This document shows, in pieces, positions 1,918 to 52,699 of a stretch of 59,414 nucleotides of DNA. A program made the translations under genes and the position numbers. Positions within the stretch are counted from its first letter, which is position 1. Each line of letters begins with the position of its first letter. Under the pieces are notes generated by a model. It worked only from the letters and a program-made list of their open reading frames with translations, was not told where the DNA came from and made no database searches. Where the stretch lies: the IMG/VR virus record IMGVR_UViG_3300025009_000114, positions 1 to 59,414 of that record; one strand, 5' to 3'. This DNA is from a virus. Its lineage: Duplodnaviria; Caudoviricetes.

Positions 1918-2394
1918 ATGCCATATCTCGGCACAAGAGACTTAGAGAGGCGAAGAGAAGAGTTGCAAGACGAGTTAGATAGCTTAAAAGAATCTCTTGC
2001 AGAAGCTACAGAAGCATACGAAGAAGCTGCAAGTGAATACAGGGAAGCTAGTACAGATGAAGAAATAGAAGAAGCTCAAAACTTCATGGATCAAAAGGGA
2101 GATGACAGAGATGATGCTGCTACTGATCTTCACGAATGGCAAGAAGAGAATCAAGAAGAGTTAGACGAATTGACTTCTTTGTCAGAAGAAATTAGCGAAT
2201 GGCAAGACGGTGCAACTCTTATACCTGAAGATGAATTTACAGAATACTGTCAGGAGCTGTTAGAAGATACTGGAGACTTACCGAAAGATATACCTCATTA
2301 TATCGTGATCGATTGGGAAGCTACAGCCAATAACCTGAGGGTTGATTACACTGAAGTAGAGTACCAGGGGACAACTTACCTCGTAAAAGATTAG
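1918..2394 (+). CDS. Very acidic ArdA-like antirestriction candidate
   Basis: Extreme D/E content; C-terminus IPHYIVIDWEATANNLRVDY resembles the ArdA C-terminal Y(I)DWEA motif. Confidence 0.55.
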   Translation: MPYLGTRDLERRREELQDELDSLKESLAEATEAYEEAASEYREASTDEEIEEAQNFMDQKGDDRDDAATDLHEWQEENQEELDELTSLSEEISEWQDGATLIPEDEFTEYCQELLEDTGDLPKDIPHYIVIDWEATANNLRVDYTEVEYQGTTYLVKD

Positions 2395-2423
2395 CACCTA
2401 ACAGTCCAACCAGCACCTACCAG

Positions 2424-2460
2424 CCCCCGATAGTGTCTCTTGTATACTATTGGGGTTTTT
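2424..2460 (+). terminator. Putative intrinsic terminator
   Basis: CCCCGATAGTGT..ATACTATTGGGG stem followed by a T-run. Confidence 0.6.
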
Positions 2461-2502
2461 CTTTGTAAATTAGAGACTTAATATGATTCTACTAACTAAG
2501 AT

Positions 2503-2724
2503 ATGATAACAGCACTAGAAGTTTTAACAGAGCTGCACAAAACTTGTTGTTTTCAAACAAGAGAAGGAAAGAAAGTAGGCAAGGCATCTAACTCCGAATT
2601 AAGAAGATGGATAAAAAATGGTGCTGTTATTGTGAATGGGAAAAAAGCTATCTTTGGTGATCCAATACAGTACCCGATAACTTCTTTTTTATTGTTTCCG
2701 AATAAACCCATAACTCTTTTTTAA
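2503..2724 (+). CDS. Small S4-like RNA-binding domain protein
   Basis: SNSELRRWIKNGAVIVNGKK matches the S4 consensus S.SEARRLI..G.V.VNG. Confidence 0.6.
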   Translation: MITALEVLTELHKTCCFQTREGKKVGKASNSELRRWIKNGAVIVNGKKAIFGDPIQYPITSFLLFPNKPITLF

Positions 2725-2736
2725 AAAGGAAAGAAC

Positions 2737-2907
2737 ATGCAAGTAATCACCATTAAGAAATCTGACAGAGCTAAAAGAGCAAATGAGAGAAGACAAAAGG
2801 ATCTTTGCTTGTCGTTAGTAGAGTCTCGGATAGCTGAAAGGAATAAAAAAGCATCTTTCAGGAAAGAGTTTTACAGGGTAGGTTGTATCAACTACAGTCT
2901 TGCTTAA
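2737..2907 (+). CDS. Small basic hypothetical protein (56 aa, not in ORF track)
   Basis: AGGA SD, ATG 2737, MQVITIKKSDRAKR..., stop 2905-2907. Confidence 0.5.
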   Translation: MQVITIKKSDRAKRANERRQKDLCLSLVESRIAERNKKASFRKEFYRVGCINYSLA

Positions 2908-2988
2908 TCGGTTCAAAGAACAATTACAAATTGTAAAGTTGTTTTTCAACTTTTTGAGCATACAAAGTATGCGAATGGGGTTTTACAA

Positions 2989-3183
2989 ATGAGTGAAAGC
3001 AAAAGTAGTCCTTCCGGTGGTGCTAGTTTCTGTAGTCTTCTTACTGTCTTATTTATAGGATTAAAGCTAACAGGGTACATTACGTGGTCTTGGTGGTGGG
3101 TATTGTCTCCGTTGTGGATTTCTTTTATTATATTAATTTTAGTTATCATTGCGGTAGGTATTTTAACCAATTGGAGGTTTTAA
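2989..3183 (+). CDS. Small membrane protein
   Basis: LTVLFIGLKLTGYITWSWWWVLSPLW, two hydrophobic segments; a pattern common in phages. Confidence 0.75.
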   Translation: MSESKSSPSGGASFCSLLTVLFIGLKLTGYITWSWWWVLSPLWISFIILILVIIAVGILTNWRF

Positions 3184-3344
3184 CATGCAAAAAGCAATAG
3201 TAATAGGAACCCTGATAGCCGAAAAGAAAATCCCTTCCTACAAGATCCCCTGTAAGGTTCCTTTCGGATCTATCCTTCGAAAGGCTCTTAGCTCTAAACA
3301 GATTCCAGTTAATCGTGCTGGAAGGTCATAAGACCAGGAAGCCA

Positions 3345-49561: not shown

Positions 49562-49601
49562 AAGGGTCTATCAGTTTCTGATAGAACCTAATAGACCCTT
49601 T
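49562..49601 (-). terminator. Hairpin after the capsid gene (putative terminator built from CTRATAG motifs)
   Basis: AAGGGTCTAT...ATAGACCCTT. Confidence 0.5.
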
Positions 49602-49650
49602 AGTTTAAGTTAAAGTGCAAAGCACTGTTGAGCGAACGTTAGTGAGCGAA

Positions 49651-51712
49651 TTAGCCAGCAATGATAACACTCTCTACAAGTGCTACTGGCTGAATTACTT
49701 CACGACCGTAGACCGAAAGTCCTCGCATATACTGACCGAAACTATCAGGAATCATTAAAGATTCGGTCTTGGTTAATTGCAGTGCGAAGGTAATAGCCTC
49801 TTTAGTTCCTGCAAGCGCATAAAACAACTCAGCAGTACCCTCAGTTGCATGATAGAGGTTATTAGTTTGAATGACCTTCATCCTGTCAATCATACCTACC
49901 ACTCCTGTTCGAAGAACACCAGTAGAATCCCCGGTAATATCAGCAGACTTAAGGTCACCTTTCTTCAGTCGAGCCACAGCCCAAGCTGGCAAAAGAACCC
50001 AACGATTCTCACTTGGGATATTTTGCTCATCAAGTACAACGTTCATATCAACAATAAGATCCGTTGCATTGTCAGAGGTAAGAGACACTGCATTAGATCC
50101 ATTAGAACCACCAGCAGCACCGAGTGCAATGTTAGACAGAACACCAGCGGTATTACCACGGTTGTTACTGTCAGCTTTGCCAACTACATAAGACAGTACA
50201 TCAGCATCAATAGCAATCTTCAGACGCTCACCAGCATCGGCAGCAAACTTATTCATCAGATCGAGATCAGTTTGAACTGCGTCAATGTCGTCGATTTTAA
50301 AAGACCAGCTCTTAGCTTCAGTGATGTTAAGGGTCTTGTTTGCTTTCTCAGGAACTTCGTAAGAAAGCGTACCACCGACAGTGTAATCGCTGATGGTGAT
50401 AGCAGGGATAGTACGGATAAGTACCTGATCTCCCTGACCTTTGCATAAATCTTAAAGATTTCGGACTATTACTTATCCTTTCGGATACTCTCTGTTTAGT
50501 CTCTGCTGCTTGCGTATATTATGTAATTCAAGTATATCTTGTATTAGTGAGTATTTCTTTTCGTGCATTATATAGGATCTTATTTTCTCCAGAAATGGCA
50601 CAGCAAATGAAGCGTCCCCATATCCAAGATTTCTTTCCCAATCGCACCAAGATCTTATAGAATAAATATTCCCCTTGAAGTCTCTTTTAAATAACTCTAA
50701 TAAATGCTTATCATCAGCACTCTGAGTAATTTTTAACCTCATTTCGTAGAAATCTTTATTCTCTCTTTTACTCAACTTTATACATCCATTTCCAGCTATA
50801 ACACCTGCAACATAAGACCAAGATAAGTGCTTTGGCATTTTTAACCATCTACTGTTTTTTCTTGAACACTGACAATAAGCCTTTAGTTCTTCGATAATAT
50901 TTTGTGAAATATCTTCAACATCTTTATGTTGATCTGATATCCATATCATATTATCAAGATGTGTAGCTTTTAATCTCATATGCTTTCCAATCCTGTTGAA
51001 AAGTATACGAGTTTCTTTGTCCCTCATAGTCCAAGTACAGGTAGAAGAGGTATTCTCACCGTCTTCTATTTTGTAGTACAAAGATCCAATATTATAAAAA
51101 TCTCTTAAGGATCTTATTACTTCAAAATCTTGATCGTTAGTTGCAGATTGTGTTAAACTTAATGTTACACTTACTCGTTGTTTTTCTGAAGTTCTAGTCT
51201 TGTAGAAGAATAGAGAAACACAACCATCAGTATCTACAAGACCTGCTAGATATTTGTTTAGTTGTTCTGAATGCACTCTGTTCTTTTTCAATTGACCGCT
51301 CAGAAGTTTATAAGCAAGTGTTGATGTGTTATACTTTGAAAAATACATAAGTAACTCCTGTGTTAATTTGGAGTCACACATTGCATCGAGTTTTACCTCG
51401 TTATTTAAGAGAGTTACGAGACCAAATTAGTTAATCTCGCCTTGATCAATGTGGACTATCATTTTATCTTTCGACTTTAGACCGTTTAGTCTCTGCGGGT
51501 GCTAAAAGCTTCCCTCGGATTTTACTCCGTTATTTAGGTCTAATTAAACTGATCATCAAGGTATTTTAATCAGTATTAGCGATCTCTCCAAATACAGTAG
51601 ACAGATAGAAGTTTTTTAACATCTTCGAGGACCATACAATAGGAGTAAATTTGCTAGTCCCATCAGATGCATAGTCTTTATATCCAGAGGTACGAGTTAC
51701 GCCATTAGCCAT
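49651..51712 (-). CDS. Major capsid protein; exons 51712-51568, 51446-51434, 50443-49651 (951 nt, 316 aa)
   Basis: GGAG SD; splice gives ...FTPIVWSSKMLKNFY...IANTD-YQGEI-KGQGDQVLIRTIP..., a P22/HK97-type coat N-terminal pattern; lies after the scaffold gene. Confidence 0.9.
50444..51433 (-). ncRNA. Reduced-core group I-like intron B (990 nt) with LAGLIDADG ORF in L6a
   Basis: P1 CGAGAU/GUCUCG with U.G; P3 ACUCUCU/AGAGAGU; P4 CGAG-GUAAAA-CUCG; GCAGAGACUA...AUAGUCC; P8 UAUCC-GAAA-GGAUA; terminal G. Confidence 0.88.
50473..51348 (-). CDS. Intron-encoded double-motif LAGLIDADG endonuclease / possible maturase
   Basis: YLAGLVDTDG and YVAGVIAGNG; ATG 51348 after AGGAG. Confidence 0.88.
   Translation of the reverse strand: MYFSKYNTSTLAYKLLSGQLKKNRVHSEQLNKYLAGLVDTDGCVSLFFYKTRTSEKQRVSVTLSLTQSATNDQDFEVIRSLRDFYNIGSLYYKIEDGENTSSTCTWTMRDKETRILFNRIGKHMRLKATHLDNMIWISDQHKDVEDISQNIIEELKAYCQCSRKNSRWLKMPKHLSWSYVAGVIAGNGCIKLSKRENKDFYEMRLKITQSADDKHLLELFKRDFKGNIYSIRSWCDWERNLGYGDASFAVPFLEKIRSYIMHEKKYSLIQDILELHNIRKQQRLNREYPKG
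51447..51567 (-). ncRNA. 121-nt minimal ORF-less group I-like intron A
   Basis: P1 ACUGAUU/GAUCAGU; P10 CCUUGAU/AUCAAGG; P3 UUAGACC/GGUCUAA; P4 CGGA-GUAAAA-UCCG; P6; GCAGAGACUA...AUAGUCC; P8 GUC-GAAA-GAU; terminal G. Confidence 0.85.
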
Positions 51713-51733
51713 TTTTACTTCTCCTTATAATTT

Positions 51734-52699
51734 TTATCCGACTATCCTTCCTTCCTGGAAGGCTTTATCGAATTTAGCTTCAATTAGGTTTGCTTCTTTT
51801 TCTTTTCCTCTATATTTACCCCTAGTAAGGTCGTTCATAAACTTATTGTACTCTTCGATAGTATAGGTTCTTTTAGTGTCCTTATCCATATCTACAGCAG
51901 TGCCTTTAGTCCCGACAGGAGTGACCTTCTTACTAAGGATGTCGTCCTTCTTAGGAGATCTCTGAGCCTTATAGTCCAAATAGAATCCAGCCAGTGCCTT
52001 TGCAGATCGTGATTGCACAGCAGACGAAAAGAGTTGCTTACGTGGTACTGAATCTACTTCATCTATTTCTTCAAGATAGTTGATAAACCCCGGATCTACA
52101 TCTATCTCTTGCCAATCATCCACCAGAGTGCTAAGTTTTACTTTAAGGTGGTTGAAAGATTCCTCTTCAACAGTCTCTTGTTCTTTCTTAAGCTGCTTAA
52201 TCTTCTCTTGCTTAAGTTGTCGAATCTCTTCTTTCAGTCCTTTCAGATCCTCAGATTCTTCTGATTGGGGTGCAACTTTCTTTACAGCTTTCTTGAAGAT
52301 ATTAATAGCGTCAGATCCAAGAAGATCTTCGTCTTCCTGGGTGAAGATATTATTAAAAGAATCTTCTTTCTTTTGTTTCGAGATCTGCTTCTTGATATCT
52401 ACCAGTTCAGAAAGAATTACTTCGTTCTTCTCTGTAAGAGACGCTAGATCTGATTTCAAAGCTGCATTGTCTTTACGAAGTTGAAAGATAGTGTTATCAG
52501 CAGTAGCCTTAAAGTTAGTGAACCTTTTCTTCCAGTCCTCCTGCGGAGGTTGTTCCTCTTGCTGCTTTACTTCTACAGCAATAGGCTCTGGAATTACTTC
52601 TTGTTCAACTACTTCATCCACTACTTGCTCTTCTTCAGCAGATCCAAAGAGTAATTTCTCAGCTTCTTGTTCTTCTTTTGCTAATTTCTCAAAGATCAT
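51734..52699 (-). CDS. Capsid scaffolding protein
   Basis: Acidic coiled coil between portal and capsid; ATG 52699 after GGAGG. Confidence 0.75.
   Translation of the reverse strand: MIFEKLAKEEQEAEKLLFGSAEEEQVVDEVVEQEVIPEPIAVEVKQQEEQPPQEDWKKRFTNFKATADNTIFQLRKDNAALKSDLASLTEKNEVILSELVDIKKQISKQKKEDSFNNIFTQEDEDLLGSDAINIFKKAVKKVAPQSEESEDLKGLKEEIRQLKQEKIKQLKKEQETVEEESFNHLKVKLSTLVDDWQEIDVDPGFINYLEEIDEVDSVPRKQLFSSAVQSRSAKALAGFYLDYKAQRSPKKDDILSKKVTPVGTKGTAVDMDKDTKRTYTIEEYNKFMNDLTRGKYRGKEKEANLIEAKFDKAFQEGRIVG

Follow-up and report, generated by a model that had tools for sequence, protein, structure and literature searches.

The window, i.e., the whole 59.4-kb stretch of viral DNA that was analysed, carries on its minus strand a major capsid gene in five parts: exon 1, intron A, a 13-nt micro-exon, intron B, and exon 3. 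The gene is placed in the usual order of portal, scaffold, and capsid. Exon 1 (51568..51712; all features described below are on the minus strand) starts with the ATG at 51712-51710, is preceded by AAGGAG 8 nt upstream (51726-51721), and comprises 48 codons plus one base. Its N-terminus aligns with the full-length homologues P0001-P0040. The micro-exon (51434..51446) contributes the last two bases of Tyr49, the residues Gln-Gly-Glu, and the first two bases of Ile53, and it ends in U. Exon 3 (49651..50443) begins with the third base of Ile53, ends with the stop codon, and corresponds to PF25209 and to phrog_267, major head protein.

Joining the three exons by script gave 145 + 13 + 793 = 951 nt and a product of 316 aa. 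When the micro-exon was omitted from the join, a frameshift resulted and the new frame was full of stops. Both outcomes had been put forward in an initial annotation of this DNA, whose coordinates and sequence statements all agree with the window on direct check. That annotation had also proposed examining homologous capsid genes for occupancy of the two sites. Intron-less homologues were found, and they are continuous across the junction (...NTDYQGEIKGQGD...), with the same reading as the spliced product. The product is identical to P0002 over ...EIANTDYQGEIKGQGD..., which spans both junctions. The invariant capsid columns N46, D48, G51, and I53 fall within the interrupted stretch, and the joined frame matches the capsid homologues from its conserved first 53 residues to its end. 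We infer that both introns are spliced out and that the micro-exon is retained in the mRNA; none of the sequencing runs listed as holding the window sequence is an RNA run. An intein, a group II intron, and a programmed frameshift were rejected because the inserts contain in-frame stops, show the splice-site features of group I, and have no features of these alternatives.

Intron A (51447..51567) is 121 nt long, has no ORF, and shows a group I-type core without P2, P5, and P9. It is preceded by U and ends in G at 51447. Its internal guide sequence (51548..51561) consists of a P10 strand and a P1 strand. P10 (51561-51555) is a perfect complement of the micro-exon positions 51446-51440 (7 pairs), and P1 (51554-51548) forms 7 pairs with exon 1 (51574-51568), with U.G at the splice site. 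The core (51453..51543) is made up of P3 (51543-51537 with 51483-51477), J3/4 (51536-51530), P4-L4-P4' (51529-51516), P6 (51514-51512 with 51499-51497), the R element with the 5' strand of P7 (51496-51484), P8 (51475-51466), and the 3' strand of P7 (51458-51453). Among the 121 nt, no stretch outside these elements could fold into a P5. Single-sequence folding of intron A with its flanks gave an unremarkable stability (z -1.51; 13/200 shuffles fold as well).

Intron B (50444..51433; 990 nt) has a P5-less core as in A, a LAGLIDADG ORF in the P6 loop, and a short P9. The 5' half (51383..51422) holds the P1 guide strand (51422-51417, paired with micro-exon 51439-51434, U.G at the splice site), the 5' strand of P3 (51414-51408), J3/4 (51407-51401), P4-L4-P4' (51400-51387), and the 5' strand of P6 (51385-51383). 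The 3' half (50444..50509) continues with the 3' strand of P6 (50509-50507), the R element (50506-50494), the 3' strand of P3 (50493-50487), P8 (50486-50475), the 3' strand of P7 (50468-50463), and P9 (50462-50445), a short hairpin before the terminal G at 50444. A U.G at the 5' splice site was also read in the B-site introns of relatives, and the terminal G in 5/5 B-site relatives parsed. The P10 of intron B is weak: the window has 4 pairs, and the relatives L204 and L056 have fewer.

The ORF of intron B (50473..51348) encodes a double-motif LAGLIDADG homing endonuclease of 291 aa, counted from ATG 51348, which is preceded by AGGAG; translation could also begin at the ATG at 51381. The last 12 codons and the stop overlap P6', R, P3', and P8 of the intron. 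The protein matches Pfam PF00961 in two stretches (E 2.1e-12, 48.3 bits, cut-off 23.1) and, distantly, I-PanMI. The search for homologues covered 16 loci and gave a match in all, including all 15 distinct ORF-bearing members of the intron family outside the window (32-66% identity). Both LAGLIDADG motifs align in 16/16 family proteins, and the second catalytic Asp is present in 15/16. In the window endonuclease, motif 1 keeps its Asp, and motif 2 has Asn at the catalytic Asp position. As Asn replaces the second catalytic Asp, homing by the window's own copy is doubtful.

All 13 bases of the micro-exon can be assigned to a helix because P10 of intron A takes up its 5' 7 nt and P1 of intron B its 3' 6 nt. 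Direct reading of the partners at 51561-51555 and 51422-51417 bears out the earlier statement that every base is paired. The layout of intron A, 13-nt exon, and intron B recurs in four other distinct sequences, namely L093 (counted once, as it is identical to L120, L135, and L162 in the twin-intron region), L204, L205, and L206. The micro-exon has a length of 13 nt in 5/5 twin loci, and the four other loci show compensatory changes in P1, P10, and P3 while the capsid frame is kept.

Introns A and B have in common the U.G 5' splice site, the terminal G, the P1/P10 guide, a P3/P7/P8 pseudoknot core, P4, and P6. Both are without P2 and P5, and a 6-nt A-rich loop closes P4 directly. The initial annotation had described shared linkers between differing stems. 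Exact matches to these linkers are confined to the two introns within the 59.4-kb window: with 0 mismatches, the 11-nt core of the R element occurs only at 51484-51494 and 50494-50504, and J3/4-P4-L4 only at 51520-51536 and 51391-51407. The strands of P3, P4, and P6 indeed differ between A and B, and each is internally complementary.

Family members were collected with the linker motifs, without any helix requirement, and these motifs alone recovered 23 distinct introns, 7 of them ORF-less. A first pattern, which required the two linkers without mismatch together with 8 bases of R, was discarded, as its 4 loci were all judged to be chance matches inside ordinary coding sequence. All family members reside in capsid genes of this one family, where about ten insertion sites are used. 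One capsid gene of this phage group can hold up to four introns. P3 is paired at at least 6/7 positions in 23/23 introns, with 19 different P3 strands among the 21 cores counted. P4 is paired at 4/4 positions and closed by a 6-nt loop in 23/23, and P6 is paired at 3/3 positions in 22/23, with seven pair types on the same count of 21 cores. The strands of P7 are complementary throughout and fall into three pair types, and a P8 hairpin is predicted for 21/21 cores. The P7 strands of the R and S elements equal those of the conventional group I intron in the homologous capsid gene of L020. As regards group I membership, a full P4-P5-P6 domain is lacking, since P4 (23/23) and P6 (22/23) are present but P5 is not. 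With this core present in 23 distinct introns, the P5-less fold marks an intron family, i.e., a real structural class as the annotation had it, and is not a product of decay. The ORF-less intron pattern gave 0 matches in genome contigs and thus no host or prophage lead.

A-site introns share the P6 pairing GGG/CCC and the 3' end ACAUUG, and the B-site introns of the twin loci have P6 UGC/GCA. A and B are each nearer to their positional counterparts in other phages than to each other. By these comparisons, A and B are two lineages of one family side by side and not a recent duplicate pair. All 7 ORF-less members share a gene with a LAGLIDADG-bearing member: five are A-site introns located 13 nt from B, and the site-32 introns of L093 and L206 lie in a gene with B.

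For the covariation analysis, the five distinct A-site introns were aligned (40 pairs, 190 cells). They are 116-121 nt long and have the terminal G in 5/5 and the U.G (columns 13-27) in 5/5 sequences. Standard pairs fill 97.9% of the 190 cells, and both sides change in 10/40 pairs. These compensatory pairs include 1/7 in P1 and 3/7 in P10, helices that are both 100% paired, and here the exon sequence itself varies. In the shuffle control, 0/500 alignments reached the observed pairing and compensatory values. When the partners were displaced by 1-3 columns, 26-42% remained paired. The pairing pattern at the A site is more than chance. RNAalifold found P1, P3, P4, and P6 unaided. It also drew an extra 3' helix (columns 118-126 with 135-142), which we rejected because it is broken in 2/5 sequences and competes with P7 and P10.

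The layout might also reflect a dead or decaying gene, with A as a remnant and with capsid protein that either starts within exon 3 or comes from another gene. A 201-aa ATG-initiated ORF does lie within exon 3 (49651-50256), and the introns are unrecognised by Rfam. However, the joined exons form an uninterrupted frame that matches the homologues from end to end, the genes around it keep their usual order, and the twin layout persists in the four other sequences with compensatory helix changes and a preserved frame. In addition, A-site introns are 80-91% identical, versus 54-74% for the flanking exons. We therefore regard a dead gene as very unlikely. An assembly chimera, with a tandem created artificially when reads from strains carrying an intron at only one of the two sites were combined, is conceivable because several related phages with family introns at different capsid sites occur together in the samples, and because the shared linkers give cross-matches between contigs, with joints at 51536 and 50412. 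Contigs of four runs, all DNA, were compared with the window. Those of relatives diverge from it exactly at 50443 and at most 4 nt from the 5' splice site of A, and past these points they continue as intron-less coding sequence. Against a chimera, contigs of two runs, possibly the source of the window, cross both introns with 0 differences. Elsewhere, 4 viral contigs, which come from different data sets, have the tandem with its 13-nt exon, as do 3 more contigs from metagenomes, and each carries sequence differences of its own. P10 of A and the micro-exon covary, a signal that a chimera would not produce. Such an artefact is thus extremely improbable.

Searches against RNA families gave no group I match (RF00028), neither for the whole window at the gathering score nor for 50300-51750 at E up to 10, where only chance-level matches to unrelated small RNAs appeared. 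Rfam returned nothing on L093, L020, L019, and L006 either. Since L020, L019, and L093 have conventional ORF-bearing introns that RF00028 thus fails to detect, the blank for intron B says little. For the ORF-less 121-nt intron A, an ORF insertion cannot be blamed. A blastn search of 49600-51800 against 50,697 phage records gave no match.

We consider it very probable that the capsid gene of this uncultured phage is split by two spliced group I-type introns of one reduced-core family, with the endonuclease of B spreading B. In group I introns, the P1 wobble pair normally docks at a site framed by P5, which speaks against this model. In the reduced core (P1/P10, P3, P4, P6, P7, and P8, without P2 and P5), the conserved 6-nt A-rich P4 loop would stand where J4/5 and J5/4 normally flank P5. 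In the first step, guanosine would attack after the U of the P1 U.G pair; in the second, the freed exon, aligned by P10, would attack after the terminal G. The micro-exon would be read by both ribozymes, as P10 of A and then as P1 of B, and its inclusion should be favoured because the guide sequences of A and B differ. The LAGLIDADG homing endonuclease would account for the spread of B. As A has no ORF and lies 13 nt from B, it was most likely carried by co-conversion during the homing of B, and it may use the protein of B as a splicing helper.

A possible, though less probable, reading is that the introns are of group I descent but no longer autocatalytic, and that splicing needs a protein, either the LAGLIDADG maturase of B or a host factor, with A the most dependent. 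The stripped P4-P6 domain alone would then be unable to fold or dock P1. This reading differs from the preferred one only in the protein requirement. It is in line with the absence of P2, P5, and (in A) P9 and with the identical J3/4, L4, R, and S linkers of A and B, which a common protein could read. Against it, group I introns can self-splice despite a small size, e.g., the one in Azoarcus tRNA-Ile (about 205 nt). Intron A resembles the latter in being compact and ORF-less with a P3-P8 core and a guide sequence, but the Azoarcus intron has P2, P5, and P9 with tetraloop-receptor contacts, all three of which are missing in A. LAGLIDADG proteins can serve as maturases (PMC3984707), which would suit a role of the B protein in splicing. 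The company of 7/7 ORF-less members with a LAGLIDADG-bearing member in the same gene agrees with such a role, but co-conversion during homing explains it equally well. The window ORF is intact despite the Asp-to-Asn change, as expected if another role is selected, but 15/16 family proteins keep both catalytic Asp, as in working endonucleases.

Two altered ribozymes bear on the preferred two-intron model. A T4 td ribozyme of P3-P7, without P4-P6, is active but about 1000-fold slower (PMC2879505, citing Ikawa, Shiraishi and Inoue 2000). Its activity makes a reduced P4-P6 domain plausible, and its cost in rate speaks for a protein requirement in the window introns. The likeness lies in a catalytic site within the P3-P7 part and a reducible P4-P6 domain. 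Unlike this td ribozyme, which is a laboratory deletion, the window family is natural, resides in an essential gene, keeps P4, P6, and the A-rich J4/5-J5/4 equivalent, and drops only P5. A Tetrahymena intron variant named deltaP5 by its authors did not splice in E. coli (PMC10136302), which speaks against the preferred model.

Tandem group I introns around a very short internal exon are already known from Staphylococcus phage Twort orf142 (I2/I3; 23 nt between two IA2 introns) and from the two 23S rRNA introns of Coxiella burnetii (IB2 and IA3; 34 nt) (PMC10136302). The comparison with Twort in the initial annotation was hence right in kind. In these systems, too, the short exon is read by the upstream intron for its 3' site and by the downstream intron for its 5' site, and exon skipping is a possible side reaction (PMC10136302). 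The micro-exon of the window, with 13 nt, is shorter than both of these reported exons, and each of its bases can be assigned to P10 or P1. The Twort and Coxiella cores are described as conventional (PMC10136302), whereas the window introns are without P2 and P5; splicing there was seen by RT-PCR and is predicted here. Cluster J mycobacteriophages also have group I introns in capsid genes, i.e., phage structural genes split by spliced introns, and the abstract of that report gives no sign of a P5-less core or a micro-exon (PMC3706429). In the largely open-access literature searched, no relevant paper on a P5-less or smallest group I intron was found. A figure legend in a lichen paper refers to a nuclear rDNA intron drawn without P5, and the passages searched of a database paper (PMC11835236) and of a Bastillevirinae paper hold no size or P5 information.

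The sole homologue of the window's LAGLIDADG protein among the 50,697 phage records is in the cultured Pseudomonas phage HHBS10_2 (PQ287653.1; L207), with 31% identity. Read by eye, its intron (L207 about 2390-3290) is laid out as in the window: it is without P2, shares the J3/4 linker, has a 4-bp P4, and places the ORF in P6; P3, P8, and P7 are compact, and a short P9 precedes the terminal G. Unlike the window introns, it retains a minute P5 of 2 bp with a GAAA loop, flanked by the joiners GAA and UAA, and for this reason looks like an intermediate. The host gene, in the capsid region, belongs to a different capsid family, the ORF is labelled as an HNH endonuclease, and the intron is unannotated.

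Group I introns are a textbook ribozyme, and their minimal natural form is informative about the amount of RNA scaffold that catalysis requires. Here, a conserved, covarying family in an essential phage gene lacks P5 altogether; its ORF-less members are without P2 and P9 as well. The A-site intron (116-121 nt) represents a natural minimal design that is open to bench testing. As a tentative and rather unlikely extension, it could be a working natural group I ribozyme without P2, P5, and P9; it would then be the smallest on record, since even the shortest established self-splicers are about twice its length. A and B would then form a mobile cassette that is co-converted across the 13-nt exon by the endonuclease of B, and the protein of B would act as a shared maturase replacing the P5 scaffold. 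Standard covariance-model annotation misses this family and gave no match at E values as high as 10. Two self-splicing elements that share a 13-nt exon base for base would mark an extreme of tight packing with the recognition helices intact. An ORF-less intron beside an endonuclease-bearing one offers a testable model for persistence without a mobility gene, and for the study of how introns and homing endonucleases diversify, the capsid gene of this phage group offers rich natural material.

The major capsid gene of the window lies on the minus strand of a 59.4-kb viral metagenome sequence with a completeness of about 97%. The upstream part of the head-gene order comprises a portal-size ORF (55309-53003) and a scaffold-like ORF of 327 aa (52717-51734), both on the minus strand. 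The capsid gene starts on the same strand with an ATG at 51712, preceded by AAGGAG, and its 5' piece runs for 48 codons up to an in-frame stop at 51566. The 3' piece, a 263-aa frame from 50442 to a stop codon ending at 49651, was assigned to Pfam PF25209 and to phrog_267 (major head protein); with an E-value limit of 0.001, 732 relatives were found. Full-length relatives have 315-332 aa, and the closest cultured capsid is 36% identical. The gap of 1124 bases between the two pieces holds a double-motif LAGLIDADG ORF of 291-302 aa (PF00961).

The initial annotation had placed two introns in this gap, A (51567-51447, 121 nt) and B (51433-50444, 990 nt), separated by a 13-nt micro-exon, with a 951-nt open frame after splicing. 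Joining 51712-51568, 51446-51434, and 50443-49651 by script gave these 951 nt, and the encoded protein of 316 aa can be aligned over its whole length, Met1 included, with intron-less homologues, which confirms the junctions, the micro-exon, and the frame. With the homologue P0002, identity extends across both junctions (...EIANTDYQGEIKGQGD...). Fusing exon 1 straight to exon 3 yields a frame with many stops, so the predicted frameshift upon micro-exon skipping also holds. Taken by itself, the mRNA sequence leaves each junction ambiguous by one base. Group I introns follow a U and end in G, and this rule selects the coordinates of the initial annotation. DNA contigs of relatives from another data set diverge from the window exactly at 50443 and at 51572, and beyond these points they run on as uninterrupted ...TDYEGEI... 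coding sequence, which delimits the insert by independent means. None of the listed sequencing runs that contain the window's sequence is an RNA run. Within the N-terminal region of the capsid protein, conservation is highest where the introns interrupt it, and N46, D48, G51, and I53 do not vary across 34 sequences.

Intron A was read element by element on the minus strand. It begins with the P10 strand (51561-51555) and the P1 strand (51554-51548), followed by P3 and a J3/4 of 7 nt. P4 has 4 bp, is capped by a 6-nt A-rich loop, and is followed by a single A; P6 has 3 bp plus a small extension. Next, the R element, which includes the 5' strand of P7, leads to the 3' strand of P3 and to a small P8 capped by GAAA; J8/7 and the 3' strand of P7 follow, and the intron ends with six bases, the last of which is G. 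Its 121 nt include no P2, P5, or P9. Intron B has the same element order and linkers; it carries the endonuclease ORF inside its P6 loop, and its P9 is a short hairpin ahead of the terminal G. The minimum-energy fold of intron A with its flanks recovers P1, P3, P4, P6, and P8, at an unexceptional energy (z -1.51). Both introns have the splice-site features, the guide sequence, and the P3/P7/P8 of group I introns, but they lack P5 and stay below the Rfam threshold. Thus, we class them as a novel structural variant within the group I introns. The related locus L020 has a conventional group I intron at the same site of the capsid gene; there, GAA, a P5 of 3 bp, and AAU come after P4. In the reduced-core introns, which share the linkers of A and B, joiners of this GAA/AAU type appear merged into the loop capping P4. 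This suggests that the family lost P5 and retained the A-rich P1-docking surface.

At 50473-50509, the endonuclease ORF crosses P6', the R element, P3', and P8, with its stop codon in J8/7; hence, protein and ribozyme use common sequence. At 51354-51374, the AGGAG of the endonuclease is able to pair with an ACUCC 11 nt upstream, as is also possible in the four other B-site twin loci, and this pairing may serve translational control.

The twin layout, in which 13 nt of exon separate an A-type intron (116-121 nt) from a B-type intron, recurs in four other distinct sequences: L093, L204, L205, and L206 (L120, L135, and L162 are identical to L093 in the twin region and were counted once with it). 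The micro-exon varies at up to four positions among these loci, and the guide sequences change to match. For example, the B-site P1 tracks the micro-exon from C-G in the window to A-U in L204. When the five A-site introns were aligned, 97.9% of the 190 cells proved to be paired, with compensatory pairs in P1 (1), P10 (3), P3 (4), the P6 extension (1), and P8 (1). None of 500 shuffles reached the observed values, slid controls were 26-42% paired, and RNAalifold found P1, P3, P4, and P6 unaided. The A-site introns are 80-91% identical to each other, whereas the flanking exons, compared over 120-150 nt, reach 54-74% identity, the exon 1 figure of L093 being contaminated by an upstream intron. Each of A and B resembles its own positional counterpart in other loci, and by this sequence comparison, they are not mutual nearest relatives.

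The capsid gene at L093:4600-7620 (minus strand; same in L120, L135, and L162) has four introns: an ORF-less reduced-core intron after residue 32, an A-type intron, a B-type intron with LAGLIDADG ORF, and, around residue 240, an intron of conventional group I type that has P4/P5-like strands and contains a further ORF. About 49 nt of exon separate the first two. The site-32 intron (minus-strand 1009-1180 of the extracted stretch) agrees in P3, P4, and P6 with the ORF-bearing intron L006:767-1763, and in its P6 loop of 71 nt a resemblance to the leader ahead of the L006 endonuclease gene persists; the ORF appears to have been cleanly deleted. At L019:2224-4000, the A site is occupied by a conventional, ORF-containing group I intron, and 29 nt of exon lie between it and a LAGLIDADG intron with reduced core, inserted after residue 58. 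As L020 is also conventional there, the A site is occupied by two unrelated intron types. L056:3102-4000 (also L052 and L063) has a reduced-core intron exactly at the B site with no A-type neighbour. Its LAGLIDADG protein is 32% identical to that of the window, and P3, P4, and P6 differ; hence, the B site is held by divergent lineages.

Three lines, namely capsid relatives, gene-blind scans, and helix counts, indicate from sequence that the P5-less fold is real. Among 597 candidate capsid relatives in the viral collection, 548 were confirmed and the best 80 loci were inspected; ten were split, and nine of these ten contain an intron with the same linkers and without P5. The P5-less introns of these nine lie after residues 32, about 44, 53, 58, 62, 97, and 193; the L020 intron and the first L019 intron are of the conventional type. 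A gene-blind pattern scan on the 5' linkers gave at least 119 stretches. Among the matches listed, 16 stretches (12 distinct cores) passed a structural filter and L116, L147, L187, and L192 were new members, all four in capsid genes. L116, L187, and L205 each have a second LAGLIDADG-protein match, which points to more introns in these genes; directly upstream of the L116 intron analysed here is the 3' end of a further reduced-core intron. Scanning for ORF-less forms gave three matches in metagenome contigs, all true members, and only the L093 group in viral contigs; the pattern scan of prokaryote genomes found none. With the linkers as sole requirement and no helix filter, all collected loci gave 23 distinct introns. 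P3 is paired at six or more of seven positions and P4 at four of four in all 23, and P6 at three of three in 22. Across 21 cores, P3 has 19 different strands, and when its two strands are taken from different introns, a mean of 3.2 of 7 positions pair. P4, P6, and P7 show 6, 7, and 3 pair combinations, all complementary, and P8 is predicted to fold into a hairpin in all 21 with a sequence that differs in nearly every member. The earlier observation of twin introns is confirmed and strengthened by the four independent recurrences. Together with these, the 23-member covarying family supports its interpretation of the P5-less fold as a real structural class.

Introns in phage structural genes are already known (PMC3706429). 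Tandem group I introns with a short internal exon occur in Twort orf142 (23 nt), a precedent that the initial annotation had rightly cited, and in Coxiella 23S rRNA (34 nt) (PMC10136302). According to a 2014 review, LAGLIDADG genes are not usual cargo of phage introns (PMC3984707). A homologue of the window's LAGLIDADG protein was found in one of 50,697 phage records, Pseudomonas phage HHBS10_2, the only cultured-phage relative found. Its core resembles the family; unlike A and B, it retains, as read by eye, a 2-bp P5 with a GAAA loop between the joiners. This group I-type intron (L207:2355-3330, PQ287653.1) is unannotated and splits a head-region gene; its record names the LAGLIDADG ORF an HNH endonuclease and places a 'hypothetical protein' on the minus strand across the apparent downstream exon. 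In the incompletely covered literature, neither a natural group I core without P5 nor one of close to 120 nt was found to be described. The smallest established self-splicing group I intron known to us has about 205 nt.

Splicing, autocatalysis, homing, and any maturase role are inferred. Most likely, both introns are excised via the group I pathway. The micro-exon would never be free, as it would stay bound to intron A until the second step of A and be gripped by the P1 of B. The guide sequences of A and B differ; in a study of engineered tandem Tetrahymena introns, inclusion of the exon was found to be promoted by distinct guide sequences (PMC10136302). The LAGLIDADG protein of intron B would be expected to cleave capsid alleles that lack the intron, at their conserved site, and so to drive homing. 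Intron A, 13 nt away, would be co-converted, which would explain why the ORF-less A-type intron lies next to a B-type intron in all five twin loci. In the window ORF (51348-50473), the second motif (50790-50820) ends in Asn-Gly, whereas 15 of 16 family members have Asp-Gly with the catalytic Asp. This copy may be a nickase, inactive, or retained for another role. Deleting P4-P6 slows the td ribozyme about 1000-fold (PMC2879505), and LAGLIDADG maturases are established (PMC3984707). As all seven ORF-less members share their gene with a LAGLIDADG-bearing member, the LAGLIDADG protein could possibly act in trans as a maturase for this family.
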